A DNA stretch of 64,000 nt from Ostreococcus lucimarinus. Its lineage: Eukaryota. The stretch lies in NCBI GenBank assembly GCA_000092065.1, contig CP000582.1, one strand, 5' to 3'. A program made the translations under genes and the position numbers. Below the pieces are notes generated by a model that made no database searches, was not told the DNA's origin, and was given only the letters and a program-made list of their open reading frames with translations. The first letter of the stretch is position 1; each line of letters starts with the position of its first letter. Below are positions 1-31,227 of this stretch, one piece after another.

Positions 1-480
1 ATATAGATTGTCCAGTAAAGTTGAAAGTGAAAGAAATCCTGCCGGCAGCAACGTTTGACACATTCGTTGCACTTTCATATCCGTTTGCAAGTGTAGACTT
101 ATCACGCAAGATTCTTGCGTAGTCCGACGACGTGATGCCGACAAATACTGACTTTGCACATCCATTGACGCAATACTTTTTGTCGAGCAACGATGCGGCA
201 GTGCCAAGCAGAACGCGCTGCTGTGGATCGCAGAGACGAGCTTCCATGCGTGACATATCAAAGGTATTGGCATCAAAATGATATACTTGAGCAATGAATC
301 CACCAAAACTTGGTGGAAGTGCACCGTCTAGGGTATCAAATTTGAATAAATCTATGATCCAACGCTTCTCCAAACCTTGAATCGCATCAAACAACGGAAT
401 CTTGTGAGTTACTGTCGACTGGCTGTGAAAAGTCTTAGCGTAGACTCGCACGTCAATACTATGACGTTTATGTTGGGTAG
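1..480 (-). other. PKS module 6: KS N-terminus (partial; continues beyond the window).
   Basis: Translation ...FDANTFDMSRMEARLCDPQQRVLLGTAASLLDKKYCVNGCAKSVFVGITSSDYARIL...GRISFTFNFTGQSI gives typical KS N-terminal motifs, with no stop before position 1. Confidence 0.7.
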
Positions 481-3400
481 TCAAAGAGCAGGAAGACCTT
501 TGTATGGAAATTTGATTTTGATGCGATTCGGACAACATACATTGGTTTTGTTGCGACAAAAAACGAATTAAAGATCGGAGTGTCGGATGCTCAAATGCTA
601 CTAACTTTGGCACATCAATATGAAGCTTCGATGAAAGTGCATCAGCAAGTTCCAAAGCAAAAGTTGAGTCCACGCCGTTGGTCATGACGCTCTCATCCAA
701 AGAAAATGGTCCATTTCTACATCCCCGTAAATCCGTTAGAACGCGCTGCACCACTGAAGCTACATGTGATTGTACGACATCCACGTGCATAGCTTCCAAA
801 TAGTTGTCGTCACTCACAATCTGAGTTGATGGGTGTTTTACCCTATCAAGGAGATCGTCAAGTAGATCCCATTGCTGTAGGCTATGTTCTGTTTGGTTCA
901 GCAGTACTCTAAATTGTGAGTCATATTTCTGCATGTCCAACTTGACTACCAAAACACCAGGAAGCGCACGAGTCAAATGACATTTTGATATTATACTGCA
1001 AAGCTTATTGGGGCAAATCGAGGTCAGGCCCAAGATGGATGAGTCCCATGTTGCATTTAACGCCATACCAACACTCGCAAATGGCCCCAAGCGGATTGAG
1101 ATAATTTCGCTTCCAAAAGAATGAAACCAAAGTGATAGCTCATCAATGTATGCATTTGACGCTGCATACGATGCCGCTCTCCCAAGACCGAAAACAGCGC
1201 TGATTGACGACAGAAATATGTCTATTTGTCGTGAGTGGGACGGAAAAAGCCAAGGCGTATTGTCTTTTTTAGCTTGTACTGAAGTTGCGACTTTTGGTAC
1301 GAAGACTGCCATCATCTGTGCAGGTGTCAGGTGTTTCACTGGAGTCATCTGAAAGACTCCTGCGGAATGTATAACTGACAGTTTTTTATTTTGATCCTTG
1401 CAGAACCGGGATTTAATGGCTGCTAACTCATCTAAATTGCACACACAAGCTCTCGATATTGTCAGATAGTCATCTTCCGTGGAAAATGTTGGATCCACGT
1501 GAAGCACGCGACTTCGCCCTGTGCGGCCAACAATACAAACATTACAATGCGAATGGCGTTTCAAATTATTTATTAAGTGAGCGGTTATGCCATGAGTTCC
1601 ACCATATGTTAAAACATTATGCGAGCAAGTCCATGCGAACTCACGCTGTCGTCCTTCGCGGAGGGTTGAACGTAAACTTACTTGCGCTAATCGCTGTGTG
1701 AAAATTTTACCAGCCTCAACTCTCATCTTGCACGAACTACAACTCAAAAACGTAAACTTTTCAAATACTGGTTTCGGAGCTAAAGCAACTTGCACATGTG
1801 GATACTCCAAATGCAATGCCTGAATTAAGCTCTCCATGGTCCCGAACGTGCAGGCGGCTTCACTTGCAGGACGTGGCTGCGTGGCCAGGTTGAAACAGGT
1901 TGATGAGCATGATCTTGAGACAATGCTTATCAACGGTAAAAACGTGAACATTGATGCGTAAATTGATGCAAATGTGTACGATGAGTCTTCTACTCTTTGA
2001 TAGGGCACTATGTCACACAAGTCCAGGTTAAAGGCACGCTTTCCAATTCGCGAAGCTTTGAAACTACCAAAATTAATACAATCTGTGCCGTCAATTCGTT
2101 GATGTTTTGCGGCTCCATAAACCCAATTGGCCACGTACTGATGCGTCGGTAATTTAGCACGTCTTCGTATTTGTGATGCACTTTCTTCACACTCTATCAA
2201 GTTATTGGAAGATTGAATTCGAGATTTAGTACGTGTAATTTTCCTATTTGAAACTGTACGATGCGCGCACGTGGTATTCAACAATCTTGAGAACTGAACC
2301 ATGGCGCAAGATATACGCAAAAAATGATGCATACACGACTTTAACAGTTGCTCTTTGACTCCTGTATCGCTAAAAAGTGTGTGTTCCATTGCACGACATG
2401 TAGAAATTGAATTCCGGAAGAACTGACATACGCTGAGGAAGCGCCGGTCGCGTACCTGTGGAGTAACGGTCACGCAGCCTTTACCAGTGTTAACACCATT
2501 CGACCCTACAACTTTAAACACAGAAGTTCTTTCGCAGAGATGTACGACCAAATTATCCTTTACTGCATTATGAGTTGTCAGCACTACTTGTGAAAGCATC
2601 GTCAATCGTTCGTTTGTTGTTATACCAACTACGGAATGTACAGCAAAAAGTAGATCTGACATTCGTGCGATATCATTATCCATATTATTTCTTTGCTTGA
2701 ATGTTAGCCATTGTGACGAATCTAGGTAATAGGCTTTACACTCCACTGTCATGTAATCGTGCAGTAAGTACTTTTCGTCGAGAAGTAGTGGGTTGCCGTC
2801 CATAGGGCGCTTATACAGAGCGCTGTAAACGGTCGCCGATAATATCGCGTGAGCGTTTGTACCTTGAAATGCAAACGAGCTCGTTCCCGTCTTCGCATTT
2901 GCTTTATGCACATGCTGGCACGAAGCAGAAGCAGATCGCGGCACAGCAACGTTTGGCTCTTGAGAGGGATTTATTGACATTGCGTGCCACGCATGTACGT
3001 TGAGTAAGCGCATGTGCATTATGCCAGTGTGTCTTTGCATTTCTACGGCACGTGATGCACTTATGAGCCCCGCCACACCGGCAGCACATTCAGCGTGCCC
3101 CATGTTCGTTTTGATTGCATGCAATCGTAAAGTTTCTGCCTGACCCAAAACAGACATCGCGCCTCCTACTTCTATGGGGTCACCAAGTGGCGTCCCAGTT
3201 CCATGCATTTCAAGGGCCCGCACTTCTAATGGCCGAGTCGAAGCGTTTGCCAGGGCTGATTTGATGACTCTGGTCTGCGATGGTCCATTTGGCGCCGTCA
3301 ACGAGCTCGTTCGACCGTCTTGATTTACTGCGGTCCCACACAGCCACACGCTCTCGCTATTGACATTCGCGGTTGGACTCAGTAATAATGTATCACAGCT

Positions 3401-6400
3401 TTCGGCTCGCACGTAACCATCCGCGGCCGCATCGAGCGTCTTGCAGCGGCCATCAGGCGCTAGCATACCAGCGCGTAGAAACATGGCCGTCGTAGTCTCG
3501 GTGAGGATGAGGTTCACGCCACCCGTTACAGTTGAGTCGCACTCACTCTGAAATACAGATGCCACACCGAGATGGACTGCCACAAGGGACGAGGAGCAGG
3601 CAGTGTCGATACTCATCGCCGGTCCTGTGAGATCGAATGTGAAGCATATCCGTCCAGAAGCGACACTGGAAACGCTCGAAGCGGGCACATCTCTGAAATT
3701 GAGTGGGAATATTAGTCGAAGTGCCCCGTACTCATCGGCACTGACACCAATGAAACAGCCTGTTTGACCATCGATTACACCTTGGTCGTCGTAGATGCAG
3801 CCGAAAGTGCACTTGAGTAACGTCCGTTGTCTTGGATCCATTTGCGCAGTTGTGCGTTCATTGAGGTCGAAAATGTGTGCGTCAAAATTGTTTACATTAT
3901 TCATATGAAATGCAAATGGTGGGTTGCCTGATTCAAAGAAAGAATCGAACCGGCTGTCGACGAGCGTCACTTCGTCGTCGTAGGTTGCAGTAGACATATT
4001 GCCGTAGAAAGACGCAAGTGTGATACTTCTATTGCCCAGATTCTCCGCAGAACTGCCTTCCAATACCCGCAAGCTTTGTCGTGATTGAATTGATGATGAA
4101 CTTGAACTTTGTAAACGGTCTGCAAGATGACGAGCTAGTGATTTTACCGTCGGGTAATCAAAACCGAGTGTATGTGGCAGATTGAGAGACGTCTCTACAG
4201 CCAAGCTCATCGCTAACTGCGACATACCGATAGAATCCAGACCTAACGATGTAAGTGGTGTATTTATTGACTTCTCATCTTGATTGATTCCAGTAATAGA
4301 AGACAAATTTCTGAAAATGAGTCCCTCTAGAGATATAAGATCATCGTGAGTTTCATCTTCGGCCCCAGCTTTGGTGGAATAAATGGTAGCGTCATCTTTC
4401 GATGATAATTCGTGTGAATTAAACCCTGAACCCAGATGCGCTTGATTATGTAGTTTTTGCCCTATCACAGAATAACATGGAGCAGAGAAAATATCGCTCG
4501 AAAGTACGTACAGATTTTTCAAGATATCCAAAGCAAGGTGTGGATTTATTGAGGGCATAAAAGCAGTGTTTGCGGAAATTCTACGCGTATCAATAGCCAT
4601 TCCAACTGCACTCCACGCTCCCCATCGAGTACTCACAATGTTCATGCCTGAAGCCTTCTTATGTGCCGACATCATATCAAGTGTTGCATTCGCAGAGGAA
4701 TAGTTGGCTTGTCCTATAGAACCGAAGACGGCGAGGGAAGAAAATACTATTGAAACAAGCATTGCATGGTGTAAGTGCGTTTTAGAACAAGAGAAAGATC
4801 CCGTCTTTGGAGCAAATGTAGACCTAATGGAATGAGGATTTTGTGAAGCATGCAAAGCGTCTTTCGTTACGCCACTCATGTGGACAATTCCAAAGGTGTT
4901 TGTGTCTCCTTCGTATGGTAATACGGTGGTAGAGGCGCACGAGTCATCTTGCCTAAGTTTTAAACTGATTCGCCAATGGTTAAAGAGTTTTGGTTTTGCG
5001 GACTTTCCACTTCTACATGATACACAAATGCCTAGTACATTGTGGTTGTGTGCTAACCAACCAACGTTCATCACCCCAATGCCACCTGTGCCACCTGTAA
5101 TTCCCCAATACTCGCACCTGTTCGAAATGAAGTGTTCCGATGGTAAGTTGTATCGTAGATGTTTCAGGAACGCAATAATGTTTTGGTTTAGTTCTTCATC
5201 AGATACTGAACACTGAGTGTGGTGATTTGACATTGTGCGAAAGCGTTCGCGTTCAATTCTTTCTTCTGTCTGTGTTCGTACTAGCGAAAGAAGGCAAGAG
5301 TAATGCACGAAGTGCATTTGTGACATCTCTATCCAAATATACTGCGACGAGTTTTGTAGCTGCTCATAGGATGCTGTGCAGAGAATCACATCACCAGCAT
5401 TCAGGCTTGACTTGGACAATTTTGTAGCGACTACCCCTATGAAGGGTATATGTGCAACTTTCGCATTCATTAACATACTTTTGACGCTCGATCCCGATGC
5501 GAATGAACGCTTTATTTCAACGAGAATAGACTGGTTAGAATCGGTTGCCACTTGCATCTTGGGGTACAAGAACTGTTGTTGCACTGATATGCGAAGTTGA
5601 CACGGCATTTTGACCTTCCGAAATGTTGAGTTTGTCACGCGTTTTTGCTTTCCTTCCTCATACATAATGCATCGTAAGACAGCCTCCAAGTGTGAATGTC
5701 CGACACTACTTAGCGCCGGTGATTGAACTTTTACATATTTTGACTGCATGAAGCACATCATGCTGGCAGTCTCCACGCCGAAGAGTGCAGGCCTCGATGG
5801 CCACTCAGGTGCATGGATAGATCTTGAATTTTCGGTTTCGTAGTACACACTGTGAACGAAATCTAGCGCACCGCAAGATTTTCTTTCAGTCGTCATCAAA
5901 CTAGATAAGTGACGCATTCTGATGATTGAAGCAGTGCAACCATGCATGGTCATCATGGCAGAAGTTTTGTTCCCCGCGCTATATAAAATGAACGAAGCAT
6001 GTACTTCTCCTGCAGATGCGGTTTGCATCATGCACTTGGAGTCCATCACATCCATACTATGCGATGCCATGCAGTTTTGTCTTATTGACTCAACAGCTTT
6101 TGGTAGGTATCCTGCAGTTATTGAATAAGTCTGACAGATTTGTAGACATGCATCACAAGTTGCCGACATCGTGAAAGGTGATGGCCGGTGTTGTGAATCA
6201 ACTCTACCTAGTATTTTGCTTTGTTTTTCGCAATGTTTTTTTGTGTATGTATGAACGCGTTGTTGAGTGTGAGTCAGAGACGTCAACGCAAATGAAAATG
6301 TGCAATTAATGGCACTTCCTGCATTCGAAAGTATTCCCGTCCGTTGCCAAATTTTAATTTGTACATTTCCAAAATGTGCTGGTTTTATGAAAACCACATC

Positions 6401-9400
6401 TCGAAGCAAGAGTAATGTTTGGTTTTTCGTAATGTTTTTCATACTCTCTCGCAAAATCTGCGCGAGCAAAGTCCCTGGTAGGCATGTTCTGTTCAAAACT
6501 TGATGGTCAGTGAGGAATTGGTTTTCAACATGGTTGAGCAAAAAAACAGTCTCAAGAACTCTATTGGTTACGTGCGCTCTGAATGGTGCCATGATTTGAA
6601 GACCCCAGCAATCAATTGGAGTGTACATGATGGATTTGCACGCAAGTTGTCGTCTGATTTGAAACTCATCATGTGCTACTGATACAATTGCGTGAGCATT
6701 TGTTCCCTGGAAAGCGAACGAGCTTATCGCCTGTGTCCGTGAAAGAGACTGCATGTTTTCCCTCGTAAATAATGCTAATTGAATTTTCGAGTTCAATGAT
6801 AACACGTCACTCACATGTGCATTTAAATGGCGCAAATGAACGATTGCGATAGCGGCTGATTCTGATAAAGAGTGGACGAGATGGGCAAATGAAGCACAGC
6901 CAGATGCCGGCTCAGCATGACCAGACCTTGATTTAACGGCCTGAGCCATCAATGGAGCATGGCTAACCTTCATCGGCGGTCTGAGGGCCTTGAACGTTGA
7001 TGAGACTTCAATCGGATCGCCAAGGATAGTTCCTGTACCGTGCAATTGTATGGCACCTATGTGATCAACTTCGACAGTTGCGGCGTGTGCAGTCGTTGAA
7101 ATCAATATCACTTGAGCGATTCCATTGGGTGCTGTGAGTGAACTCGTTCGTCCGTCTTGAGCGACAGTGCAAGCCATGAGTACACAGCGCTGTGTATGGG
7201 ATTTACAACGACTGAGTATCTGTAATTCGCAACACTCACCTCTGACATACCCATCTGCATGCATATCTAACACTTTACAACGACCTTCTGCAGATAACAT
7301 ACCCGCCAAGTAGCAAAGATACGAATTCCTGGGACTTATGATATGAACGCCTCCACAAAGCATATCATGCACGGCGTCGAATGTGTTCCGACATCCCAAG
7401 GTTTCCCGGCGAGCGATATACATCGCCACTAGCGCTGAAGAACATGCTGTATCCACGCTGACGGCTGGGCCTTGCATATCAAATATATATGCAAGACGAC
7501 CGGATGCTACGCTGATATGTTGACCGGATGCACTATATGCACAGGAATGCTCGCGTGCGCCTAAGGACACTTCGGGATAAGATGAAATACCAAGCGAGAT
7601 ACCGGTGTAAATGCTGAATAGATGGCTATGGAATAGACGTTGAGAATGTTCCAACAGCAGACGCTGCTGTGGGTCCATGCTGATCGCCTCTGCTTTTCCA
7701 ATTCGGAAACCTTGCCAGTCGAACATCACGATGCTTTCAACGAAGCAGCCCACTTTTAAACGTGGGTCGCTTTCTCCAAGTTCATCCGACAAAATGCGCC
7801 GTGCTGTTGGCATGAGGGCAATACTGTCGCAGTTTGCGACGCCCGCTGCCCCATGTGAAGTTCCAGATGACACAGCAAGCACACACTGAAGGTTGGGTTG
7901 CACAAATGGTGCGTTTTGTGGTGAACGACACAGTGCTTCTATCCCGTGCGCTTCGTCACAGCTGTGTTCAACATTTTGCATTAAATATGTGCACAATTTT
8001 GAAATGGTGGGGAAGTCAAATACCAAAGATGGTGCTACTTGCCTGTCGAAGTGTGTCGATATTTTACTGGCTAACTCAATCGCAGATAAAGAATCCAAGC
8101 CGGCGTCGTGGAGGGGGATATCAGGGTCAACATCGAAACCAATCAATGTGCAAACCATCTTATGAAGTAAACTCAGACAGTCCTGGGTGGTGTGACACCG
8201 CACGCCTGACGTAGTAAACTTTTTCTGACGCTCTAGCGTTGTTTGTTTATCAGCAATTTTCCGAGTGTGCACACTTTGCAAGCCGGTCGTATGTTTCTCA
8301 AGTAGCCAATCAGCCTTCGTCGAGTCACTGGTGAATGCGTTCTGGCATACGACGAGCACTGCGCCACATGATAGAGGTGCATTTTCTATTCTGCGCATGG
8401 TACTTTTCAGCGCAGCGAGGGCAGTCTTTGGGTCCATGAAGCCAACTCCTAGACGCGACATATTTCGTTCTATGTACTTATTACGGATCGCCATTCCGAC
8501 CTTCCCCCAGGCGCCCCATTGAACGCTGCACACAGGGCGACCAGCTGTGTGCTCAAATTGAGCGAGAGTATCCAAGGCAGAATTTGCGCATGAATAATTT
8601 GCCTGTCCTGGTGAACCTATTCGTGCCGTTATGGAAGAAAAGAAAATGGCGCTTAAAAGCGGTTTGCTTGAGTATAGATCAGCGTCAATGGTGAGAACTT
8701 TAGGAGCAAAGACTTCACGAATGCGTGCTGGCGTTTGTCGCAGAAGCAAGGCATCCGATGTACAACCTGCCGCATGCACGAGTCGAATTGAAGAGCACTT
8801 ATCAGTGAGCATGCAGTTATGGTTATGTGTTCGCCAGACATACATGAAACACTCAATGTAAAACGTCCGCTCATGCACGTAAATCTGAGATTTGCCTGAA
8901 CGATTCGGTAACTTGATGCATTGCATCTTCGTACGGATCAGCCTTCCAATGCCCCCGGACCCTCCTATTATCGTAAGTTGCTCTGTTTTTTTACCTTTCT
9001 CGTCACTTAAGCGCAGATATAAGGCTGAAGGTACGGTTTTATCGAAAAATTTGTGTTGATCTACGTATGAGTTTGACGGAACTATATTCTCTTGCACCGC
9101 TACCTTGCAAATTTGATGCAGCTGTTTGGTAGCGTTTGTACAATGAATGAGCTCGATGTGTCGACGCATTAGGCTTGTAAGTAAGGCGATATCGGCTGCA
9201 ACCTGCATCACTGAACATGCTTGTATTTTCCTTGGAACGGGTTCAAAGTCTGCATCTTGACATTCATAGAAAATTGTGATATTCTGGATTTTGCAGGGCG
9301 CTTTGCACGTTAAGCTACTAGCTTTGAACTGGGAATCGAAACCTAAAAGTTTGTCTAAACTCATACTGCAACCTGAGATTGTGTAACTTCCGACTGTTTT

Positions 9401-12400
9401 CACCTTGGAAACAGACTCAAAGATGGAGACACCACAACTAGCAAACCAACGCAATCCCTTGATCGCAATCTTCTGTGATACTGCGTCACCGATTACAGCA
9501 TTGACTGCTATTATGAAGGCTGCGGATGTGTTCGAAAGACTAGCTGCATTGTGATGAAGATCATAGGAACTGATAGAATGCGTGACGACATGCACATTTG
9601 AGCGGAGAAGAGGCGCGATTGTGGGCGAATCGAACTGCTTCATACTTGTATCGCACTTCTTGGATGCATGCTTTATCCTTGCACGACAATGCTCACCTTG
9701 TGAAGTTTCCACTTTGATCGCACCGGTTATGGCGCGGACAGAAACTTCTATACGTTGGTGGTACTGCAAAAGTAATGGCCTCACAATCGCAAGATCTTGA
9801 ACCATTGCAGTGTGTAAATCAAATGTACCGCACGCTTGAGCCATGTAATCTATGTACCCAGCCGCTGGAAATAACGGTTTTCCATGGATGCAATGGTCCG
9901 ACAGCGCTGGTGTCGGCTGATGGAGGCGCGAAACAATCGAATTGTGGCACACTTTTATCGACGCACCCGAGCTGTGCACTGGAGATGCAAACCAGCACTG
10001 ATTGCAGGAGAATAGCTTGGATGCGACACTATTGCAAGAACAGCCAGAATTTCGTGCTGTCGCCGATAATATCGCGTGAGCGTTTGTACCTTGAAATGCA
10101 AACGAGCTCGTTCCCGTCTTCGCATTTGCTTTATGCACATGCTGGCACGAAGCAGAAGCAGATCGCGGCACAGCAACGTTTGGCTCTTGAGAGGGATTTA
10201 TTGACATTGCGTGCCACGCATGTACGTTGAGTAAGCGCATGTGCATTATGCCAGTGTGTCTTTGCATTTCTACGGCACGTGATGCACTTATGAGCCCCGC
10301 CATACCGGCAGCACATTCAGCGTGCCCCATGTTCGTTTTGATTGCATGCAATCGTAAAGTTTCTGCCTGACCCAAAACAGACATCGCGCCTCCTACTTCT
10401 ATGGGGTCACCAAGTGGCGTCCCAGTTCCATGCATTTCAAGGGCCCGCACTTCTAATGGCCGAGTCGAAGCGTTTGCCAGGGCTGATTTGATGACTCTGG
10501 TCTGCGATGGTCCATTTGGCGCCGTCAACGAGCTCGTTCGACCGTCTTGATTTACTGCGGTCCCACACAGCCACACGCTCTCGCTATTGACATTCGCGGT
10601 TGGACTCAGTAATAATGTATCACAGCTTTCGGCTCGCACGTAACCATCCGCGGCCGCATCGAGCGTCTTGCAGCGGCCATCAGGCGCTAGCATACCAGCG
10701 CGTAGAAACATGGCCGTCGTAGTCTCGGTGAGGATGAGGTTCACGCCACCCGTTACAGTTGAGTCGCACTCACTCTGAAATACAGATGCCACACCGAGAT
10801 GGACTGCCACAAGGGACGAGGAGCAGGCAGTGTCGATACTCATCGCCGATCCTGTGAGATCGAATGTGAAGCATATCCGTCCAGAAGCGACACTCAACGC
10901 TTGTGATGTAGCATCTAGTGCACTTGCGGGGACACTTGTGGTTGTGCGCATGACCTCACCATACTCCATCCAAGCGATTCCAATAAACACAGAAGTGTGA
11001 GATATTGTGTATTTCGGTAGACATAGCGAGCTCACGCAGTGTAGTAGCAGACGCTGCTGTGGGTCCATGCTGATCGCCTCTGCTTTTCCAATTCGGAAAC
11101 CTTGCCAGTCGAACATCACGATGCTTTCAACGAAGCAGCCCACTTTTAAACGTGGGTCGCTTTCTCCAAGTTCATCCGACAAAATGCGCCGTGCTGTTGG
11201 CATGAGGGCAATACTGTCGCAGTTTGCGACGCCCGCTGCCCCATGTGAAGTTCCAGATGACACAGCAAGCACACACTGAAGGTTGGGTTGCACAAATGGT
11301 GCGTTTTGTGGTGAACGACACAGTGCTTCTATCCCGTGCGCTTCGTCACAGCTGTGTTCAACATTTTGCATTAAATATGTGCACAATTTTGAAATGGTGG
11401 GGAAGTCAAATACCAAAGATGGTGCTACTTGCCTGTCGAAGTGTGTCGATATTTTACTGGCTAACTCAATCGCAGATAAAGAATCCAAGCCGGCGTCGTG
11501 GAGGGGGATATCAGGGTCAACATCGAAACCAATCAATGTGCAAACCATCTTATGAAGTAAACTCAGACAGTCCTGGGTGGTGTGACACCGCACGCCTGAC
11601 GTAGTAAACTTTTTCTGACGCTCTAGCGTTGTTTGTTTATCAGCAATTTTCCGAGTGTGCACACTTTGCAAGCCGGTCGTATGTTTCTCAAGTAGCCAAT
11701 CAGCCTTCGTCGAGTCACTGGTGAATGCGTTCTGGCATACGACGAGCACTGCGCCACATGATAGAGGTGCATTTTCTATTCTGCGCATGGTACTTTTCAG
11801 CGCAGCGAGGGCAGTCTTTGGGTCCATGAAGCCAACTCCTAGACGCGACATATTTCGTTCTATGTACTTATTACGGATCGCCATTCCGACCTTCCCCCAG
11901 GCGCCCCATTGAACGCTGCACACAGGGCGACCAGCTGTGTGCTCAAATTGAGCGAGAGTATCCAAGGCAGAATTTGCGCATGAATAATTTGCCTGTCCTG
12001 GTGAACCTATTCGTGCCGTTATGGAAGAAAAGAAAATGGCGCTTAAAAGCGGTTTGCTTGAGTATAGATCAGCGTCAATGGTGAGAACTTTAGGAGCAAA
12101 GACTTCACGAATGCGTGCTGGCGTTTGTCGCAGAAGCAAGGCATCCGATGTACAACCTGCCGCATGAATAAAGCATAATGAATCCACAGCGTATCGATTT
12201 ATCTGTATATTAGTGTGTACGTAGGATTGTACAAACGACACAACGCTGTCACTGTACTGATGCTGTCTTAGCATACAGTTTGTTCGTCCAAAGCGACTCA
12301 TTAGTGTATGTGGTGAGCTGTACCTCATTAGGAAAGTACTAGTGAGTTGCCCTGTAGCTCCTGTTCCTCCCATGATGAAGTAAGACCGATTAAGATCGCA

Positions 12401-15400
12401 GGAGGCTATGAATTCACTTTTGTTACGATCGAGCTTGATCTTATGTATTTTGCGATTAGAGCACGCCAACTGTTGAGCAAGAGATTCTTTTAGGCACCGG
12501 TGCAATACATGAAATTTTCTCAGACTTTTGTATTGCGTAAAAGCCTGTAGTAGGATGCTAGAGTGTTGAAACGGCGCATCTTCACCCCGTACAACTAGGG
12601 AAACATTTTCTTTGATGCATTCAGTCTCAGCGCATCGGAACAGTGATGCAAGATACTTGATGGAATTCGTCTCACATAGCTCAACTCGACCTTCCATTTG
12701 CAGCACATAGGCGTGCAATACCATCACCGCATGAGCGACTATTTTTTCACGCATCAGTGATATAAATCGCGCGTGTGCTTGAGTGGTACAAGGTCTTAAG
12801 CTTGTGCTTGGTGAAAATCTTGACACGTACTTGACAATATTGATTCCATTGCTCAAATTATTTTTATGTGGATACCCATTTGCCTTTGTGCGTAGCATTT
12901 TGCATTTCACTTTGAATAACACCACGCAGCCAACCAGATGATTGCCAAGACTCTCACCATGGCTGTCCAATTCAATGTTACAGCGCGTACTTATGCGCCG
13001 CACTGACGTGATCTCAGGAGGAGATGTGCTACAAAACTTTATTATGGTCGGCAGCATCGTCACACACTTTGATACTTTCTGTCCATCTATGACTCCCACA
13101 CTGATCTGCAGAGTCGCGTCAATAATTGAGGGCACATGGCCTGATGTGAAGTTTGTTGATGCAGTCTCAACATGAGCGAGTGCAATGTTCAACCGACGCC
13201 CACTGTCGAAGATCGGGCTCAATGTCTGCGAAGAGAAAACATAAAGTGTGTTGTGTCTATCGCACTTCTTGGATGCATGCTTTATCCTTGCACGACAATG
13301 CTCACCTTGTGAAGTTTCCACTTTGATCGCACCGGTTATGGCGCGGACAGAAACTTCTATACGTTGGTGGTACTGCAAAAGTAATGGCCTCACAATCGCA
13401 AGATCTTGAACCATTGCAGTGTGTAAATCAAATGTACCGCACGCTTGAGCCATGTAATCTATGTACCCAGCCGCTGGAAATAACGGTTTTCCATGGATGC
13501 AATGGTCCGACAGCGCTGGTGTCGGCTGATGGAGGCGCGAAACAATCGAATTGTGGCACACTTTTATCGACGCACCCGAGCTGTGCACTGGAGATGCAAA
13601 CCAGCACTGATTGCAGGAGAATAGCTTGGATGCGACACTATTGCAAGAACAGCCAGAATTTCGTGCTGTCGCCGATAATATCGCGTGAGCGTTTGTACCT
13701 TGAAATGCAAACGAGCTCGTTCCCGTCTTCGCATTTGCTTTATGCACATGCTGGCACGAAGCAGAAGCAGATCGCGGCACAGCAACGTTTGGCTCTTGAG
13801 AGGGATTTATTGACATTGCGTGCCACGCATGTACGTTGAGTAAGCGCATGTGCATTATGCCAGTGTGTCTTTGCATTTCTACGGCACGTGATGCACTTAT
13901 GAGCCCCGCCATACCGGCAGCACATTCAGCGTGCCCCATGTTCGTTTTGATTGCATGCAATCGTAAAGTTTCTGCCTGACCCAAAACAGACATCGCGCCT
14001 CCTACTTCTATGGGGTCACCAAGTGGCGTCCCAGTTCCATGCATTTCAAGGGCCCGCACTTCTAATGGCCGAGTCGAAGCGTTTGCCAGGGCTGATTTGA
14101 TGACTCTGGTCTGCGATGGTCCATTTGGCGCCGTCAACGAGCTCGTTCGACCGTCTTGATTTACTGCGGTCCCACACAGCCACACGCTCTCGCTATTGAC
14201 ATTCGCGGTTGGACTCAGTAATAATGTATCACAGCTTTCGGCTCGCACGTAACCATCCGCGGCCGCATCGAGCGTCTTGCAGCGGCCATCAGGCGCTAGC
14301 ATACCAGCGCGTAGAAACATGGCCGTCGTAGTCTCGGTGAGGATGAGGTTCACGCCACCCGTTACAGTTGAGTCGCACTCACTCTGAAATACAGATGCCA
14401 CACCGAGATGGACTGCCACAAGGGACGAGGAGCAGGCAGTGTCGATACTCATCGCCGATCCTGTGAGATCGAATGTGAAGCATATCCGTCCAGAAGCGAC
14501 ACTCAACGCTTGTGATGTAGCATCTAGTGCACTTGCGGGGACACTTGTGGTTGTGCGCATGACCTCACCATACTCCATCCAAGCGATTCCAATAAACACA
14601 GAAGTGTGAGATATTGTGTATTTCGGTAGACATAGCGAGCTCACGCAGTGTAGTAGCAGACGCTGCTGTGGGTCCATGCTGATCGCCTCTGCTTTTCCAA
14701 TTCGGAAACCTTGCCAGTCGAACATCACGATGCTTTCAACGAAGCAGCCCACTTTTAAACGTGGGTCGCTTTCTCCAAGTTCATCCGACAAAATGCGCCG
14801 TGCTGTTGGCATGAGGGCAATACTGTCGCAGTTTGCGACGCCCGCTGCCCCATGTGAAGTTCCAGATGACACAGCAAGCACACACTGAAGGTTGGGTTGC
14901 ACAAATGGTGCGTTTTGTGGTGAACGACACAGTGCTTCTATCCCGTGCGCTTCGTCACAGCTGTGTTCAACATTTTGCATTAAATATGTGCACAATTTTG
15001 AAATGGTGGGGAAGTCAAATACCAAAGATGGTGCTACTTGCCTGTCGAAGTGTGTCGATATTTTACTGGCTAACTCAATCGCAGATAAAGAATCCAAGCC
15101 GGCGTCGTGGAGGGGGATATCAGGGTCAACATCGAAACCAATCAATGTGCAAACCATCTTATGAAGTAAACTCAGACAGTCCTGGGTGGTGTGACACCGC
15201 ACGCCTGACGTAGTAAACTTTTTCTGACGCTCTAGCGTTGTTTGTTTATCAGCAATTTTCCGAGTGTGCACACTTTGCAAGCCGGTCGTATGTTTCTCAA
15301 GTAGCCAATCAGCCTTCGTCGAGTCACTGGTGAATGCGTTCTGGCATACGACGAGCACTGCGCCACATGATAGAGGTGCATTTTCTATTCTGCGCATGGT

Positions 15401-18400
15401 ACTTTTCAGCGCAGCGAGGGCAGTCTTTGGGTCCATGAAGCCAACTCCTAGACGCGACATATTTCGTTCTATGTACTTATTACGGATCGCCATTCCGACC
15501 TTCCCCCAGGCGCCCCATTGAACGCTGCACACAGGGCGACCAGCTGTGTGCTCAAATTGAGCGAGAGTATCCAAGGCAGAATTTGCGCATGAATAATTTG
15601 CCTGTCCTGGTGAACCTATTCGTGCCGTTATGGAAGAAAAGAAAATGGCGCTTAAAAGCGGTTTGCTTGAGTATAGATCAGCGTCAATGGTGAGAACTTT
15701 AGGAGCAAAGACTTCACGAATGCGTGCTGGCGTTTGTCGCAGAAGCAAGGCATCCGATGTACAACCTGCCGCATGAATAAAGCATAATGAATCCACAGCG
15801 TATCGATTTATCTGTATATTAGTGTGTACGTAGGATTGTACAAACGACACAACGCTGTCACTGTACTGATGCTGTCTTAGCATACAGTTTGTTCGTCCAA
15901 AGCGACTCATTAGTGTATGTGGTGAGCTGTACCTCATTAGGAAAGTACTAGTGAGTTGCCCTGTAGCTCCTGTTCCTCCCATGATGAAGTAAGACCGATT
16001 AAGATCGCAGGAGGCTATGAATTCACTTTTGTTACGATCGAGCTTGATCTTATGTATTTTGCGATTAGAGCACGCCAACTGTTGAGCAAGAGATTCTTTC
16101 AGGCACCGGTGCAATACATGAAATTTTCTCAGACTTTTGTATTGCGTAAAAGCCTGTAGTAGGATGCTAGAGTGTTGAAACGGCGCATCTTCACCCCGTA
16201 CAACTAGGGAAACATTTTCTTTGATGCATTCAGTCTCAGCGCATCGGAACAGTGATGCAAGATACTTGATGGAATTCGTCTCACATAGCTCAACTCGACC
16301 TTCCATTTGCAGCACATAGGCGTGCAATACCATCACCGCATGAGCGACTATTTTTTCACGCATCAGTGATATAAATCGCGCGTGTGCTTGAGTGGTACAA
16401 GGTCTTAAGCTTGTGCTTGGTGAAAATCTTGACACGTACTTGACAATATTGATTCCATTGCTCAAATTATTTTTATGTGGATACCCATTTGCCTTTGTGC
16501 GTAGCATTTTGCATTTCACTTTGAATAACACCACGCAGCCAACCAGATGATTGCCAAGACTCTCACCATGGCTGTCCAATTCAATGTTACAGCGCGTACT
16601 TATGCGCCGCACTGACGTGATCTCAGGAGGAGATGTGCTACAAAACTTTATTATGGTCGGCAGCATCGTCACACACTTTGATACTTTCTGTCCATCTATG
16701 ACTCCCACACTGATCTGCAGAGTCGCGTCAATAATTGAGGGCACATGGCCTGATGTGAAGTTTGTTGATGCAGTCTCAACATGAGCGAGTGCAATGTTCA
16801 ACCGACGCCCACTGTCGAAGATCGGGCTCAATGTCTGCGAAGAGAAAACATAAAGTGTGTTGTGTCTATCGCACTTCTTGGATGCATGCTTTATCCTTGC
16901 ACGACAATGCTCACCTTGTGAAGTTTCCACTTTGATCGCACCGGTTATGGCGCGGACAGAAACTTCTATACGTTGGTGGTACTGCAAAAGTAATGGCCTC
17001 ACAATCGCAAGATCTTGAACCATTGCAGTGTGTAAATCAAATGTACCGCACGCTTGAGCCATGTAATCTATGTACCCAGCCGCTGGAAATAACGGTTTTC
17101 CATGGATGCAATGGTCCGACAGCACTGGTGTCGGCTGATGGAGGCGCGAAACAATCGAATTGTGGCACACTTTTATCGACGCACCCGAGCTGTGCACTGG
17201 AGATGCAAACCAGCACTGATTGCAGGAGAATAGCTTGGATGCGACACTATTGCAAGAACAGCCAGAATTTCGTGCTGTCGCCGATAATATCGCGTGAGCG
17301 TTTGTACCTTGAAATGCAAACGAGCTCGTTCCCGTCTTCGCATTTGCTTTATGCACATGCTGGCACGAAGCAGAAGCAGATCGCGGCACAGCAACGTTTG
17401 GCTCTTGAGAGGGATTTATTGACATTGCGTGCCACGCATGTACGTTGAGTAAGCGCATGTGCATTATGCCAGTGTGTCTTTGCATTTCTACGGCACGTGA
17501 TGCACTTATGAGCCCCGCCATACCGGCAGCACATTCAGCGTGCCCCATGTTCGTTTTGATTGCATGCAATCGTAAAGTTTCTGCCTGACCCAAAACAGAC
17601 ATCGCGCCTCCTACTTCTATGGGGTCACCAAGTGGCGTCCCAGTTCCATGCATTTCAAGGGCCCGCACTTCTAATGGCCGAGTCGAAGCGTTTGCCAGGG
17701 CTGATTTGATGACTCTGGTCTGCGATGGTCCATTTGGCGCCGTCAACGAGCTCGTTCGACCGTCTTGATTTACTGCGGTCCCACACAGCCACACGCTCTC
17801 GCTATTGACATTCGCGGTTGGACTCAGTAATAATGTATCACAGCTTTCGGCTCGCACGTAACCATCCGCGGCCGCATCGAGCGTCTTGCAGCGGCCATCA
17901 GGCGCTAGCATACCAGCGCGTAGAAACATGGCCGTCGTAGTCTCGGTGAGGATGAGGTTCACGCCACCCGTTACAGTTGAGTCGCACTCACTCTGAAATA
18001 CAGATGCCACACCGAGATGGACTGCCACAAGGGACGAGGAGCAGGCAGTGTCGATACTCATCGCCGGTCCTGTGAGATCGAATGTGAAGCATATCCGTCC
18101 AGAAGCGACACTCAACGCTTGTGATGTAGCATCTAGTGCACTTGCGGGGACACTTGTGGTTGTGCGCATGACCTCACCATACTCCATCCAAGCGATTCCA
18201 ATAAACACAGAAGTGTGAGATATTGTGTATTTCGGTAGACATAGCGAGCTCACGCAGTGTAGTAGCAGACGCTGCTGTGGGTCCATGCTGATCGCTTCTG
18301 CTTTTCCAATTCGGAAACCTTGCCAATCAAAGTTCGACACGTTTCTCAGTTTCCACATCGCGCACGACAAGTTTTCATCAAAGTGATAATAATGATCTGT

Positions 18401-20513: not shown

Positions 20514-23258
20514 CTAGTCGTAGGTCTTCTTCAGATAGCTGATGATATCGACACTCTCGAATAACGAGATCCCGGTGTTCGGATCTTCAAGATAAGGTAC
20601 TTGAAATATACCGGTGCGATTGAGAAGCAAACTCCTTCTTGGGCTACCGCGTGCACATGGACGAAAAACATAAGAAATTCCCCGCTCGTTCAGAGCTTTT
20701 CGCACTAGAGCGCAAAATGGAGAAGCTTCGTAACCCCAAAAAATCAAAGGCTGCTCACCTGCACGTGAAGTACGCCGATGCGAAGCATCATTGATCTTTG
20801 ACGCTTGAGCGAACCTCTGAAACAATGAGACAAGAGAAGCTGGTTCTTCGCCATCCAGATACTCCTGATAGAGATACTGAATGATGCCGTCAGCACCTTT
20901 CACAGCGATGTCGTCGTTTCGATCATCTCGTAGGAAAGGGACTACTTCAGACCCAAGTTCAACACCCTGTAGAATCGCTAACTCGGAGCTATTCGAACAC
21001 GACGCGGTAGGACACGGTTTGCACAAGTAACTCACGTCACAAATACTCAAAACCTCTCGTACAAGCCGACAGGAGTCGTCATCCTCGACGTCATAAAGTG
21101 TCAGCGTTGGTGGAGCTGGCGTAGCGTCGGCACGTTCTTTGACTGCCTCTCTCAGACGGTGGCTACCAAGCTTGCTGACCTCCAAAAACCGTAGTCCAGC
21201 GCCTCTCACGAAAGCGTACTCTGTAACGTTTTCACGCGCGATGCGTGGGGACCAACCGTGTACAAACAGACCCAAAGCAACTCGAGAGAGCCCTTTCCAA
21301 ACAGCCTCGAGAAGCTCTCCTCGCTGCGACTGTTCGAAGGCAAACATCTTTGGCTCATTAACTTGAAAATTCGCACTGAGTGCTTCAAATGCTACTGCTG
21401 TGTCTTCAAATGTTGCACCTGGGTATTTTAGATCCGCCCGCCACATGCAATGAGCCCCATATGGCACTCTTTCGGGCAGAAGAATTGTTGCTACGGGACC
21501 AGCCTCTACATCTTGTGCATCAATTATGACGCACTCGGTGCGCCCATTAACGTCTGTTGCTGTATAGCTCTCATCATGAACGTACATAACTAACCAGCCA
21601 TCATCTTCATCTACACCTCCTGGTCTTCCAACAAACTGGGCTTCCATACCGTAACGGTTTGGACCATGCTCATAAGTGACCGTCTTCTGCTCTTGCATAT
21701 CAATTTTCACGACTGCGTCAAACTTGAGCTGAGTGGTCGATTCCAACTCTGACAAAAGGACTCGCCCGGCGTAGGCGTACCTGTTTCGCCTTCCAACAAA
21801 TGCGTCGTTGATGCGTGGGGTTTCTAAAGGAATACTAAATAGATATCTTTCTGTGACCTTTCCAGTGACAAGATTTATTCTCCATTCATGAACTTTTGGA
21901 ATCTTGCCAACTCGCACGGCCTCTTTGATCCACTCACTTGAACCGTTAGCGCGCATCGCCTCTTGGAAAAAGCCGTCTTCACGAATTCCAGTAATGACTA
22001 TCAACTGCTCATTCCTTTCATTTTTTTCCTCCCACGAATTGATGAAGTGGTATACCATTTGTGACGAGCTACAATTAAACCAAGTCACGCTTGTTGACTG
22101 TGCATCTCTATTCAACACTCCAAAACGCGCCCGCTTGTCTTCGTTATACTGAAGAGGGTGTTTCCCTAGCAACTGTCGAACAGGCTTGATATCCATGCTG
22201 CCTTCAAAAAGAACCGTAAAATGCTCAGTTACACAGAAATCGTGCATGAAAATGCTACCAACAAACGGGATAGACCAAAGCGAGTTGATGCTCGAGATTG
22301 TACCATCTGGCTTCAACGTACCCACAGAGCAATGTGGCGGTGAGACTGGATTGAAACCAAAGAAAATAAGTTCACCGGTTGACGGTAACACTTTTGGATG
22401 CGCAGTGAAAGGAACGTAAGGAGGTAGTTTGCCATCAAACGTACATGCTGAAATTGTTTCGAGGGTATCTGGATCAAGTTCCCAAGGCGGACAGGTATCC
22501 TGTAGCGCGAACGTCCTACCAGCAAAATGGAGAAGCGCCGTATTTGCACTGTCTTTCATAAACATTCCACCCGTGATGAGGTTGGAAAGTGCATTTGCCA
22601 GAAATGTTCCACCGTCAGCATTCATGAGTGGTCTAAATATGCGTTTTCCGCTTTCAATCTCACGCTTCCAGCTAGACGTCCGAATAAAACGATTTCTAAA
22701 TTTAACTCTGTTGCCAGTGCAAAAGTCTACAGCGTAGATCATACCATCACCCTCGAACCAATGATGCCAGCCTGATCCTAAACCAAAATCTACTTGCCCT
22801 GGACCTGCACCCCAACGCTTGTAGTGATCAACAGCAAACTTTGGATTGGGGCCTACGTACGCGTACTGACCGAGTGGAAAATCGCTTGGAATTTTACCGT
22901 TAATTTTCATCGTCGAAGAATCATCACCAGCTTGCGCATCATAATCGCAACAGGCCGTGACTTCCTGTCCTACCGGATAATAGTTTCCAGAAAGAAAAGC
23001 GGCACCATGTTCGCCGTATTCCACTGGATCTAGAAGTTGATACGACGTAGAAGCGGCGGCAGAAATATAGCCTGTATCCTCATCACTCGAAGGCTGAATT
23101 GAATCTATTTCTTGGATCGTTCTCGTAGACAAATCTGTTTCCGTTTGTACTCGAAGTATAGAGGACACACGCCTTGTCTGCAAACTAAGAAGACAGCTCT
23201 TGCGGCGGTATGTTTTATAGTAGCGCACAGGAGCGTTGTGTGCCGATAGTGAGCCCAT
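20514..23258 (-). CDS. Carotenoid cleavage dioxygenase (RPE65/CCD family) fused at its C-terminus to two GST-N/glutaredoxin-2-like thioredoxin-fold domains; N-terminal transit-peptide-like region.
   Basis: 914-aa ORF in the track. CCD-family features include FDGDGMIYAVDF, multiple conserved His/Glu-containing blades, and a FINSWEE-like segment. C-terminal TLYDVEDDDSCRLVREVL... and LIFWGYEASPFCALVRKALNERGISY...FQVPYLEDPNTGISLFESVDIISYL resemble GST N-terminal/Grx2 folds. Sits 256 bp upstream of the PKS start on the same strand. Confidence 0.7.
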   Translation of the reverse strand: MGSLSAHNAPVRYYKTYRRKSCLLSLQTRRVSSILRVQTETDLSTRTIQEIDSIQPSSDEDTGYISAAASTSYQLLDPVEYGEHGAAFLSGNYYPVGQEVTACCDYDAQAGDDSSTMKINGKIPSDFPLGQYAYVGPNPKFAVDHYKRWGAGPGQVDFGLGSGWHHWFEGDGMIYAVDFCTGNRVKFRNRFIRTSSWKREIESGKRIFRPLMNADGGTFLANALSNLITGGMFMKDSANTALLHFAGRTFALQDTCPPWELDPDTLETISACTFDGKLPPYVPFTAHPKVLPSTGELIFFGFNPVSPPHCSVGTLKPDGTISSINSLWSIPFVGSIFMHDFCVTEHFTVLFEGSMDIKPVRQLLGKHPLQYNEDKRARFGVLNRDAQSTSVTWFNCSSSQMVYHFINSWEEKNERNEQLIVITGIREDGFFQEAMRANGSSEWIKEAVRVGKIPKVHEWRINLVTGKVTERYLFSIPLETPRINDAFVGRRNRYAYAGRVLLSELESTTQLKFDAVVKIDMQEQKTVTYEHGPNRYGMEAQFVGRPGGVDEDDGWLVMYVHDESYTATDVNGRTECVIIDAQDVEAGPVATILLPERVPYGAHCMWRADLKYPGATFEDTAVAFEALSANFQVNEPKMFAFEQSQRGELLEAVWKGLSRVALGLFVHGWSPRIARENVTEYAFVRGAGLRFLEVSKLGSHRLREAVKERADATPAPPTLTLYDVEDDDSCRLVREVLSICDVSYLCKPCPTASCSNSSELAILQGVELGSEVVPFLRDDRNDDIAVKGADGIIQYLYQEYLDGEEPASLVSLFQRFAQASKINDASHRRTSRAGEQPLIFWGYEASPFCALVRKALNERGISYVFRPCARGSPRRSLLLNRTGIFQVPYLEDPNTGISLFESVDIISYLKKTYD

Positions 23259-30800: not shown

Positions 30801-31142
30801 TTCCCATCATTCGTGCGAGATTTAAGCGCACATCGCATCCGCGCGCCGTCGGTATCGACGCACAAAGTTTGTAATTCTAGACCCTGAGCAACTTGAAAAT
30901 TACCTCATCACCGTTTTCATTATTTTTGATAAAATTAACCTCAAAATTCAAAAATTTCGTCGGAACCTCGACGTCGCGATACTTAACGCGAGACAACGAA
31001 CAATGGCGCGTTGGAAAGCTCTAACGTTTTTACAAAATATATCCGCGAATCAGCGCGATCGGATTCCGCGTCGCGACGCTAGACGCGCGCAAACGCGAAA
31101 ATTAACGTTTTTCATATTTTTTTTCGAAATCACTTTGTACTG
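27891..31142 (+). mobile_element. pogo/Tigger-like (Tc1/mariner superfamily) DNA transposon, about 3.25 kb, with imperfect TIRs and flanking TA.
   Basis: Left end GTTGTACTAGGGATTTCGAAAATAATGTATGA (27891-). Reverse complement of the right end is CAGTACAAAGTGATTTCGAAAAAAAATATGAAA (-31142). They share the GTAC...GATTTCGAAAA..AT.TATGA core. TA dinucleotide immediately outside both ends (27889-27890 and 31143-31144). Contains the transposase ORF below. Confidence 0.6.
28108..30741 (+). CDS. pogo/Tigger-type DDE transposase (CENP-B/HTH N-terminal region plus DDE_1 endonuclease domain), 877 aa, apparently intact.
   Basis: HTH_Tnp_Tc5-like segment ILSMAKNFYRDEHHADPSDKTFGSAWFYRFLNRHGID. DDE_1 signature MVICDGCYAHTVDEV...ILPPHCTHILQGEDLYHFGVFK. 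Long uninterrupted ORF. Confidence 0.75.
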   Translation: MGQILSRMTPPRARRSASPTVSTARKGCKKASQRSSASLGGAGSTTAPACDDEDGRAQVAKDAREVAVSLLANKRRREVSGQVMAKVTATTLFLDTVSFKTELIKQHAFLNRVRKLLKDKDVKRDARALVTEECASTSDQSENTVHVTADVARTRREERSRNPHPFYVEVVHALSRGDISATQAVHELQQVGVRVTKAFLKRVCTAQSFRDDIPHYSECEDGRGRPSALSNAYLDQLAKIVKHYIRVGISLSQETILSMAKNFYRDEHHADPSDKTFGSAWFYRFLNRHGIDTSLYNPQDALRLNAATEHNVSNYYQRVAQTAVSNGFATWNADFDANDRSSEMIIWNEEKKSRVFTFDEAKVMLAYEKGVRGVRMLVIKGEDNRRSAVTANDAFAASVMGCRNLAGESLAPYFVCTTQPNVEDGFEIPGTITDTTTGACQQAQWIRGTKKGSFDGFAFATWLKDHLAPCVPDLSPENPAMVICDGCYAHTVDEVLEICAAMGILMVILPPHCTHILQGEDLYHFGVFKGAFRVERAEIEAMKQLAAAWFIKLFENGVATSFGQREFWYAVKEAWKGAWTKQAVEKGFKMQGLVPFNRAPLWKNFPNHERKEPQRSTPDKESQVEAAERCVERMSIPGAPGLRVIAQSSDSTFDVTFDGSPESFARAPLNMMKLDEVYKSLVENPSNHSMNDEHLNVMKQLILEKQENITKNIVTTTRKQRSTRRHDRYDEATAPAMARLLAARQKREKTKKRTHDAAQDGCDARFKDNTDDIQFLAALHKRLDDNGSLEKSLTRAELMKVMRAKRIPLPQGPTADILRDKLKEVDERLYEANIECTRVANARWPKRARHASSVDDANVRCEVKYHPSGVRVQLITD

Positions 31143-31227
31143 TACTCTTTTCGTACAGCTTAGATAACACCGTGCGTCTAAGGCTACACGTTCGAAGAAT
31201 CAGCCACACACAATTCTAAACTTCGTT

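Follow-up and report, generated by a model that had tools for sequence, protein, structure and literature searches.

How does a giant modular enzyme come to carry successive modules that are almost the same nucleotide for nucleotide, within a single open reading frame (ORF)? We have analyzed this question in a 64,000-nucleotide stretch of the Ostreococcus lucimarinus genome (contig CP000582.1 of GenBank assembly GCA_000092065.1), referred to here as the window. The left end of the window contains the 5' part of OluPKS3, a gene for a giant type I polyketide synthase (PKS). In our judgement the array of modules in this gene is likely to have arisen by in-frame amplification through unequal exchange, combined with the non-reciprocal transfer of patches into other modules.

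The sole long open frame between positions 1 and 20300 lies on the minus strand. It runs without stop codons from 20287 to 2 (6762 codons) and leaves the window at the left end; this orientation corrects an earlier note on this DNA, which was made from the letters of the sequence without database searches. The ORF that adjoins the PKS frame (20514-23258, minus strand, 914 aa) is an exact match to XP_001416379.1 of O. lucimarinus CCE9901, and the next accession, XP_001416378.1, belongs to a polyketide synthase with a length of 18,193 aa (PMC6681478). Other ORFs of the window cluster with O. lucimarinus proteins, and the domain order of the window PKS is that given for OluPKS3 (JGI protein 30000) in Table S2 of Shelest et al. 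2015 (PMC4661987). The gene is OluPKS3, or XP_001416378.1, a synthase without integral acyltransferase (AT) domains (trans-AT-type) in the low-GC part of chromosome 2.

Duplication of modules in OluPKS3 was already published in 2015 by Shelest, Heimerl, Fichtner and Sasso (BMC Genomics 16:1015, PMC4661987). These authors described modules 1-3 as duplicates with 89-98% similarity, their ketosynthase (KS) and acyl carrier protein (ACP) domains being 98-100% similar and KS1-3 clustering with KS5, and considered recent module duplication to be a main route of algal PKS evolution. The general process is also well established in bacterial PKSs. The 2015 study worked at the level of proteins and modules, whereas the present analysis provides a nucleotide map and a comparison with metagenome contigs. 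What is new is the exact block map, the 3609-nt unit with its four variants, a segment specific to module 3 (b'), a 62-nt terminal copy, the location of block ends at motifs, and the metagenome comparison.

Block structure of the OluPKS3 repeat

Positions 1-21000 of the window were compared with themselves by blastn, and identity between modules was determined from a codon alignment of the five modules. With the DPQQR motif as an anchor, the encoded protein consists of an N-terminal region (U), modules 1-3, each with the order KS, dehydratase (DH), ketoreductase (KR) and ACP, module 4 (KS, a degenerate DH-like stretch, KR and ACP), module 5 (KS-KR-ACP) and the start of KS6. The repeated unit is conveniently divided into three parts: part a (1459 nt) covers the KS and the N-terminal half of the DH; part b (1091 nt) covers the C-terminal half of the DH, a linker and the N-terminal half of the KR; and part c (1059 nt) covers the C-terminal half of the KR, the ACP and a linker. 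In these terms the layout of the array is U-abc-abc-ab'c; the initial 62 nt of a come next, and a unique KS4 after them. The coordinates are collected in Table 1.

Three sets of self-matches define the array. The interval 9649-14716 aligns with 13258-18325 over 5068 nt with 4 mismatches and no gaps, at an offset of exactly 3609 nt (1203 codons). The intervals 7656-8776, 11046-12166 and 14655-15775 are 100% identical over 1121 nt, at offsets of 3390 and 6999. Finally, 2832-3667 matches 10059-10894, 13668-14503 and 17277-18112 over 836 nt with 1-2 mismatches. Every repeat offset is divisible by 3. The in-frame duplication of modules with mosaic blocks of identity, as described in the earlier note, is thus borne out by the blastn self-matches and by the stop-free frame. 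The 3609-bp period that it assigned to modules 1-3 applies to copies 1 and 2, but in copy 3 only to the initial 1459 nt, and the full length of module 3 is 3390 nt.

The differences between copies 1 and 2 lie at unit offsets 29, 258, 1201 and 2225, and two of them are synonymous and two non-synonymous. At the start of KS4 (7717-7656) the opening 62 nt of the unit occur once more; their first copy has A at offset 29, the internal and terminal ones G. Segment b' is 219 nt shorter than b and shows an identity to it of 0.3-0.5, with the DAVSQ and GGSGGIG motifs kept. The patch in KS5 differs from KS1 at 1 position (835/836) and from KS2 and KS3 at 2 positions, and identity falls to 0.37-0.5 in the flanks on both sides.

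Outside the repeat blocks the modules show identities of 0.2-0.5, and at each of the six block ends the switch from identical to unrelated sequence spans only 1-3 nt; the identity of the repeats is therefore not due to chance. Purifying selection was also rejected as its cause, since synonymous sites are identical too. The breakpoints had been called sharp before, and sharp they are, but the measured positions (18325, 9649/9648, 8777/8776, 7656/7655, 3667 and 2832) deviate by 3-9 nt from the earlier values of 18316, 9645, 8770 and 3664, and by 31 nt from 7625. The interval 9645-10316, previously listed as a block of its own, disappears as such, as identity is continuous from 9649 to 18325. Strongly conserved motifs are found at or beside five of the six block ends, namely FDWQG at the KS N-terminus, DPQQRLL, SVASGR, GTNAH(AILSAT) and HAAG of the KR. 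The sixth, the a|b' end after KKCD inside the DH, has no recognisable conserved motif. Just upstream of the start of the array, FD is encoded in both sequences by codons that differ synonymously.

The GC content of third codon positions is 0.49 in a, 0.46 in c and 0.51 in the KS5 patch, compared to 0.40-0.44 in the unique parts and 0.44 in the duplicated b. GC-biased conversion was considered on this basis and set aside; the signal is too weak, since the duplicated segment b is not elevated, and the composition of KS domains offers an alternative. The plus strand of the array carries three identical ORFs of 151 aa (9775-10230, 13384-13839 and 16993-17448) at a spacing of 3609 nt, which we regard as antisense by-products and not as genes.

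Table 1. Features of the 5' part of OluPKS3 in the window
Feature	Coordinates	Strand	Remarks
OluPKS3, 5' part; giant type I PKS	2..20257	-	6752 codons from ATG 20257; truncated at left edge of window
N-terminal region U	18326..20257	-	unique; ~640 aa; ~500 aa without recognised domain, then loading ACP ~18557-18685
Copy 1 = module 1	14717..18325	-	3609 nt; KS 18316-17480, DH N-part 17149-16949, KR 15994-15503, ACP 15166-14981
Sub-segments of copy 1	a 18325-16867, b 16866-15776, c 15775-14717	-	
Copy 2 = module 2	11108..14716	-	3609 nt; 4 differences from copy 1
Copy 3, segment a (KS3 and N-terminal half of DH3)	9649..11107	-	1459 nt; identical to copy 2
Segment b', specific to module 3 (C-terminal DH half, linker, N-terminal KR half)	8777..9648	-	in place of b
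Copy 3, segment c (C-terminal KR half, ACP3, linker) and first 62 nt of KS4	7656..8776	-	1121 nt
Unique part: remaining module 4 (KS4, degenerate DH-like, KR4, ACP4) and N-terminal 71 codons of KS5	3668..7655	-	
Conversion-like patch: KS5 core, SVASGR motif to GTNAHAILSAT	2832..3667	-	836 nt
Unique part: remaining module 5 (KR5, ACP5) and KS6 start from ~271	2..2831	-	

Independent contigs and the history of the array

The comparison with other assemblies was based on the flanking 914-aa protein, which is matched exactly in 151 blocks of public assemblies. The most informative contig, L005, is a 360-kb metagenome contig (JGI 3300047157 Ga0494219_00130) that is colinear with the window from 24000 to 10514, with 3 differences and no gaps. 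It covers U-abc-abc plus 594 nt of the third a, as in the window. The junctions of the array are seen independently of the window: many contigs contain U|a, L005 contains a|b, b|c and c|a, L009 (JGI 3300028132) contains a|b' and b'|c, and L006 and L007 contain the junction of c with module 4 (M4) and that of M4 with the KS5 patch. Most short-read contigs (L008, L011, L012 and L013) stop 17-120 codons into the repeat. Two of these, L011 and L012, stop 127 and 141 nt past 18067, the site of a difference between KS5 and KS1-3; these lengths are k-mer-like, and the record of L012 is named k141_.... Such end points are expected if the repeat and the KS5 patch exist in those populations.

The identical blocks could in principle have been created by a duplicated or chimeric join, or by a repeat that was wrongly resolved in the source assembly, a danger to which the earlier note had itself drawn attention. 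The paths that contigs take through the repeat do disagree, since L006 and L007 pass from one abc unit directly to module 4 and L009 reads U-a-b'; in addition, two variants of copy 1 in the window, C at 18067 and T at 17124, are absent from five wild contigs and possibly stem from misassigned reads. However, L005 comes from an independent sample and traverses U-abc-abc-a exactly as the window does, every type of junction is corroborated in other contigs, the copies have variants of their own, and the frame stays open for more than 20 kb. Short-read contigs that end at the edge of the repeat are what a true multi-copy repeat should produce, and the collapsed paths of L006, L007 and L009 are mutually contradictory, as would result from a graph walk through a repeat. 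We therefore regard an artefact as highly improbable, and the repeat as real.

The same contigs raise the question of whether the number of modules varies in nature. L006 and L007, from different samples (JGI 3300048828 and 3300020177) and with different haplotypes, both read U-abc-M4 and are 6999 nt shorter, that is, exactly two modules; the path of L009 is U-a-b'-c. The U-abc-M4 form is what an exchange of module 1 with module 3 within their c segments should yield; it likewise corresponds to the shortest path through a collapsed repeat graph. A single true structure cannot correspond to all three paths, and each path is a permitted walk through the graph, so that collapse by the assembler is the simpler explanation for L006, L007 and L009. 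We can only tentatively suggest that wild O. lucimarinus has OluPKS3 alleles with different numbers of modules, a three-module form (window, L005), U-abc-M4 (L006, L007) and perhaps U-ab'c (L009), with copy variants moving between strains. If this were true, ongoing unequal exchange in an abundant picoalga of the ocean would be altering the length of a polyketide chain, and the process would be directly visible in metagenomes.

All 3 differences between L005 and the window (24000-10514) fall on the 10 positions that distinguish the copies, for which the chance probability is about 4e-10. In L005, L006 and L009 copy 1 has the alleles of window copies 2 and 3, and the same is true at 18067 in L011 and L012, which reach only this one of the two sites 18067 and 17124. 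At 18067 copy 1 of the window has C, in common with KS5. Two readings fit these shuffled alleles: movement of variants between copies across strains, or misassignment of reads in one assembly. The divergence between copies (4/3609, ~0.1%) is about that between strains in the unique flank (5/5675, L007). The last homogenising exchange is thus of about the same age as intraspecific variation; it was probably very recent, and exchange is probably still ongoing.

The history that best accounts for these observations, and which we consider probable, begins with the first extension module (KS-DH-KR-ACP). Unequal homologous exchange would have amplified this module in frame, the partners being the conserved stretch FDWQGFRIGKAEAISMDPQQRLL at the 5' ends of adjacent KS domains, with U-abc-abc-ab'c-(62 nt)-M4 as the outcome. 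The period is constant and in frame, the copies are arranged head to tail, and a partial copy terminates the array; such an (hX)n-h layout, in which h stands for the starts of KS1 and KS4 and the 62-nt sequence is the terminal copy, is the footprint of unequal crossing-over. Non-reciprocal transfer, either gene conversion or template switching, would have put parts of the unit into diverged modules, for example the core of KS5. In module 3, segments a and c would have been pasted in or, equivalently, b' would have been placed into a copy of the unit. Transfer of this kind is needed for the KS5 core and for a and c of module 3 because unrelated sequence lies on one or both sides of them, and the KS5 patch in particular has the form of a gene conversion tract, being near-identical with diverged paralogous sequence on both sides. 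The location of block ends at motifs fits exchanges that resolve in short conserved stretches as well as survival of in-register chimeras only. Module amplification with gene conversion tracts, as proposed in the earlier note, is accordingly supported by the head-to-tail units, the 62-nt terminal copy, and the KS5 patch with its unrelated flanks.

Several points weigh against this history. Module 3 is no plain copy, since its middle third is a different sequence. A blastp comparison of b and b' with 245 fetched proteins found no relatives at E<=1e-3, and thus no source for either segment in this set. Scans with b' and with the KS4 core were likewise negative in a metagenome contig collection that evidently lacks the contigs compared here, and a protein search with module 3 yielded nothing above 7,892 aa and not OluPKS3 itself. 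The number of abc units, two full and a mosaic third, is independently checked only to 10514, by L005. The PKS product called in L005 (gene from L005:13866) begins 288 codons after the ATG at 20257 and has 16,671 aa; with that ATG as the start its length would be 16,959 aa, a deficit of 1,234 aa relative to the 18,193-aa reference that is near, but not equal to, one module of 1,203 aa. This gap could reflect a difference further down the gene or a difference in gene models. The flanks of the patches are 30-50% identical, which is too low for ordinary homologous pairing, and classical conversion may thus be doubtful. An effect on chain length is something that we infer from PKS colinearity. Recent amplification is also not fully separable from an older array homogenised by conversion.

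If such an array were old, modules 1-3 and KS5 would be ancient paralogues under concerted evolution in selected blocks, and their near-identity would be uninformative on the date of duplication. The patchiness of the blocks in the KS5 core and in a and c of module 3 does look more like conversion than like duplication, and the copy-distinguishing sites are distributed differently among strains. The same homogenisation of KS cores is found in a Bathycoccus PKS, and concerted evolution of bacterial PKSs is well documented (PMC4256081, PMC2569948). Continuous homogenisation fits less well with the identity of full 3609-nt units through segment b, which gives no sign of a conversion hot spot, and with flanks of 30-50% identity, which would demand conversion that was very long and very precisely bounded. 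Furthermore, the O. tauri counterpart, OtaPKS4, has a single KS-DH-KR-ACP module (PMC4661987), and a syntenic relative (L014, see below) has a single KS. An old array is for these reasons rather unlikely. For the patches only, one may also think of replication-based template switching, or of illegitimate recombination where a motif offers a few bases of identity; selection would then have retained the chimeras that were in register. Such an origin would explain why identity drops from 100% to random inside 1-3 nt with no gradient, why the ends fall at short conserved motifs, and how exchange took place next to flanks whose identity (0.2-0.5) is too low for homologous pairing. The a|b' end does not fit such a motif rule, and the shuffled variants suggest conversion among near-identical copies; moreover, the outcome is indistinguishable from conversion between once-similar paralogues whose flanks diverged later. 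We consider template switching a less likely, though still credible, origin of the patches, and continue to favor amplification by unequal exchange with non-reciprocal transfer.

Enzyme architecture and surrounding sequence

Each of modules 1-5 yields Pfam matches to the N and C parts of ketoacyl-synt, PKS_DH_N, KR and PP-binding. Acyl_transf_1 gave no match in the 6762 aa (E<=0.001) and none in the N-terminal 644 aa (E<=1). Repeated KS...ACP modules with reductive domains, and no AT inside the modules, characterize a modular type I AT-less PKS, and OluPKS3 is assigned to the trans-AT class by Shelest et al. 2015 (PMC4661987). Among the other ORFs of the window that were inspected, none codes for a free-standing AT. 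Inspection of modules 1-3, including the chimeric module 3, found all catalytic motifs intact: Cys-His-His in the KS, HxxxGxxxxP and DxxxQ in the DH, the Rossmann motif and Tyr in the KR, and Ser in the ACP. With these motifs intact and the frame open throughout, modules 1-3 are probably functional. Module 5 (272-3880, minus strand), when delimited by the same KS anchors, is exactly 1203 aa long and is 30-50% identical to module 1 outside the KS core; this length may be a coincidence or a trace of an older common origin.

In region U the only Pfam match is PP-binding at aa 525-567. The region is 35-42% identical to two orthologues (P0046 and P0243) from residue 7 onward. Neither Pfam nor the PDB sequences gave a match to its N-terminal ~500 aa (18728-20257), for which AF2 modelling reached a pLDDT of 32. 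This part contains a stretch, IGHSQGWISQEV, that is invariant in the orthologues and resembles the GxSxG nucleophile motif. It may be part of a putative loading or acyl-transfer domain of an unrecognised kind. A divergent acyltransferase, suggested by the motifs GQG, GHSQG and PFH, was not supported; there was no Pfam or PDB match, GQG is not conserved in the orthologue, and hhalign against an AT-containing PKS aligned the KS alone. In the protein search the best homologue of the loading region plus module 1 was 42% identical, and none was near-identical.

In a modular PKS that obeys colinearity, each KS-DH-KR-ACP module adds one C2 unit and leaves a double bond. Under this rule, modules 1-3 of OluPKS3 would build a triene stretch and a change in copy number would alter the length of the chain, the evolutionary consequence that the earlier note had seen in the array. 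OluPKS3 thereby provides a clean eukaryotic example of an assembly-line enzyme that gains modules and swaps domain cores while the frame is kept. Its exchange points at conserved motifs are the kind of safe splice sites sought by PKS engineers. The gene is located in a fast-evolving, low-GC compartment of a globally abundant picoalga; polymorphism in module number would help to link it to a metabolite and, if real in wild populations, would add to the interest of the locus.

The window has a GC content of ~46% and contains the nuclear ChlI and ChlP genes as well as split genes with small exons. Chromosome 2 of O. lucimarinus is known for short introns, transposable elements and extra non-coding DNA (PMC2367439), with which the features of the window are consistent. 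The ORFs of ChlI, a magnesium chelatase subunit (56098-57150, minus strand), and of the ChlP geranylgeranyl reductase (60656-62071, plus strand) were identified by eye from their translations. The ChlI ORF lacks a transit peptide at its start, which makes an exon further upstream likely, as would be typical of the short-intron genes of this chromosome. An ORF for a Tc5/pogo-type transposase (HTH_Tnp_Tc5 and DDE_1; 28108-30741, plus strand, flanks 27900-31130) varies in presence by strain: L010 (NCBI GCA_014466335.1) has 1.35 kb of other sequence in place of window 27901-31128, L007 has an inverted fragment at this site, and the transposase products called in other contigs have 711-870 aa. L005 lacks a stretch of 244 nt that the window has at 31136-31379, an indel that separates two strains otherwise nearly identical.

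A related picoalga with a GC content of 0.47 is represented by L014 (positions 2849-9715; JGI 3300035157 Ga0373644_0000640), in which an RPE65-GST fusion gene is followed by a PKS in the same order. This PKS of 1018 aa consists of the loading region and one KS, 58% identical to KS1-3, and the genes next to it are unrelated and include a Toc75 homologue. As nothing but the loading region and one KS precedes these unrelated genes, the PKS locus of the L014 lineage is drastically shorter or decayed.

Comparison with known systems

The closest well-studied analogue is the mycolactone PKS (mlsA1, mlsA2 and mlsB) of Mycobacterium ulcerans and its relatives, in which like domains are >98.5% identical (Pidot et al. 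2008, PMC2569948). As in OluPKS3, the domains form a mosaic, identity is not module-wide, and conversion or recombination has been inferred; strains there can be one module apart (PMC2569948). The mycolactone system is bacterial, plasmid-borne, cis-AT and homogeneous over the whole locus, whereas OluPKS3 is eukaryotic, nuclear and AT-less, and in the part seen here only modules 1-3 and KS5 are homogenised. The product of the mycolactone PKS and the consequences of module loss are known, unlike those of OluPKS3.

Another point of comparison is the GRINS, duplicated sequences of >500 bp with >80% identity within one PKS that have been linked to gene conversion (Nivina et al. 2021, PMC8256042). 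The OluPKS3 repeats exceed both values. We nevertheless rejected their classification as GRINS, as the mean absolute GC and TA skews are 0.06-0.13, with a threshold of >0.15, and are no higher in the repeat blocks (0.06-0.12) than in unique module 4 or in the whole ORF; these values were obtained in windows of 100-150 nt, and the window size used by the GRINS authors may differ.

Within the Mamiellales, the giant PKSs of the outlier region (BOC1) show large differences in length and module number, not only from species to species but also among strains of O. tauri and even within a laboratory culture that was sequenced again (bioRxiv 10.1101/2025.04.21.649811). That preprint deals with the same clade and the same chromosomal compartment, but stresses MULE transposons and large rearrangements in O. 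tauri; OluPKS3 has a clean in-frame tandem array with no transposon inside, the nearest being the Tc5/DDE element 8 kb upstream. In a PKS of Bathycoccus prasinos (CAL6305119.1, P0092) the KS cores at aa 106-316 and 735-945 are identical at 210/211 aa between unrelated flanks, and their identity starts at the ASGR motif, as in the KS5 patch. This suggests that homogenisation of KS cores is recurrent in Mamiellales PKSs.

In bacterial assembly lines, concerted evolution homogenises sets of domains, and growth can proceed by repeated duplication of the most N-terminal module (Medema et al. 2014, PMC4256081). That survey was prokaryotic, its evidence was phylogenetic, and it gave no map of breakpoints; the unit amplified in OluPKS3 is the first extension module.

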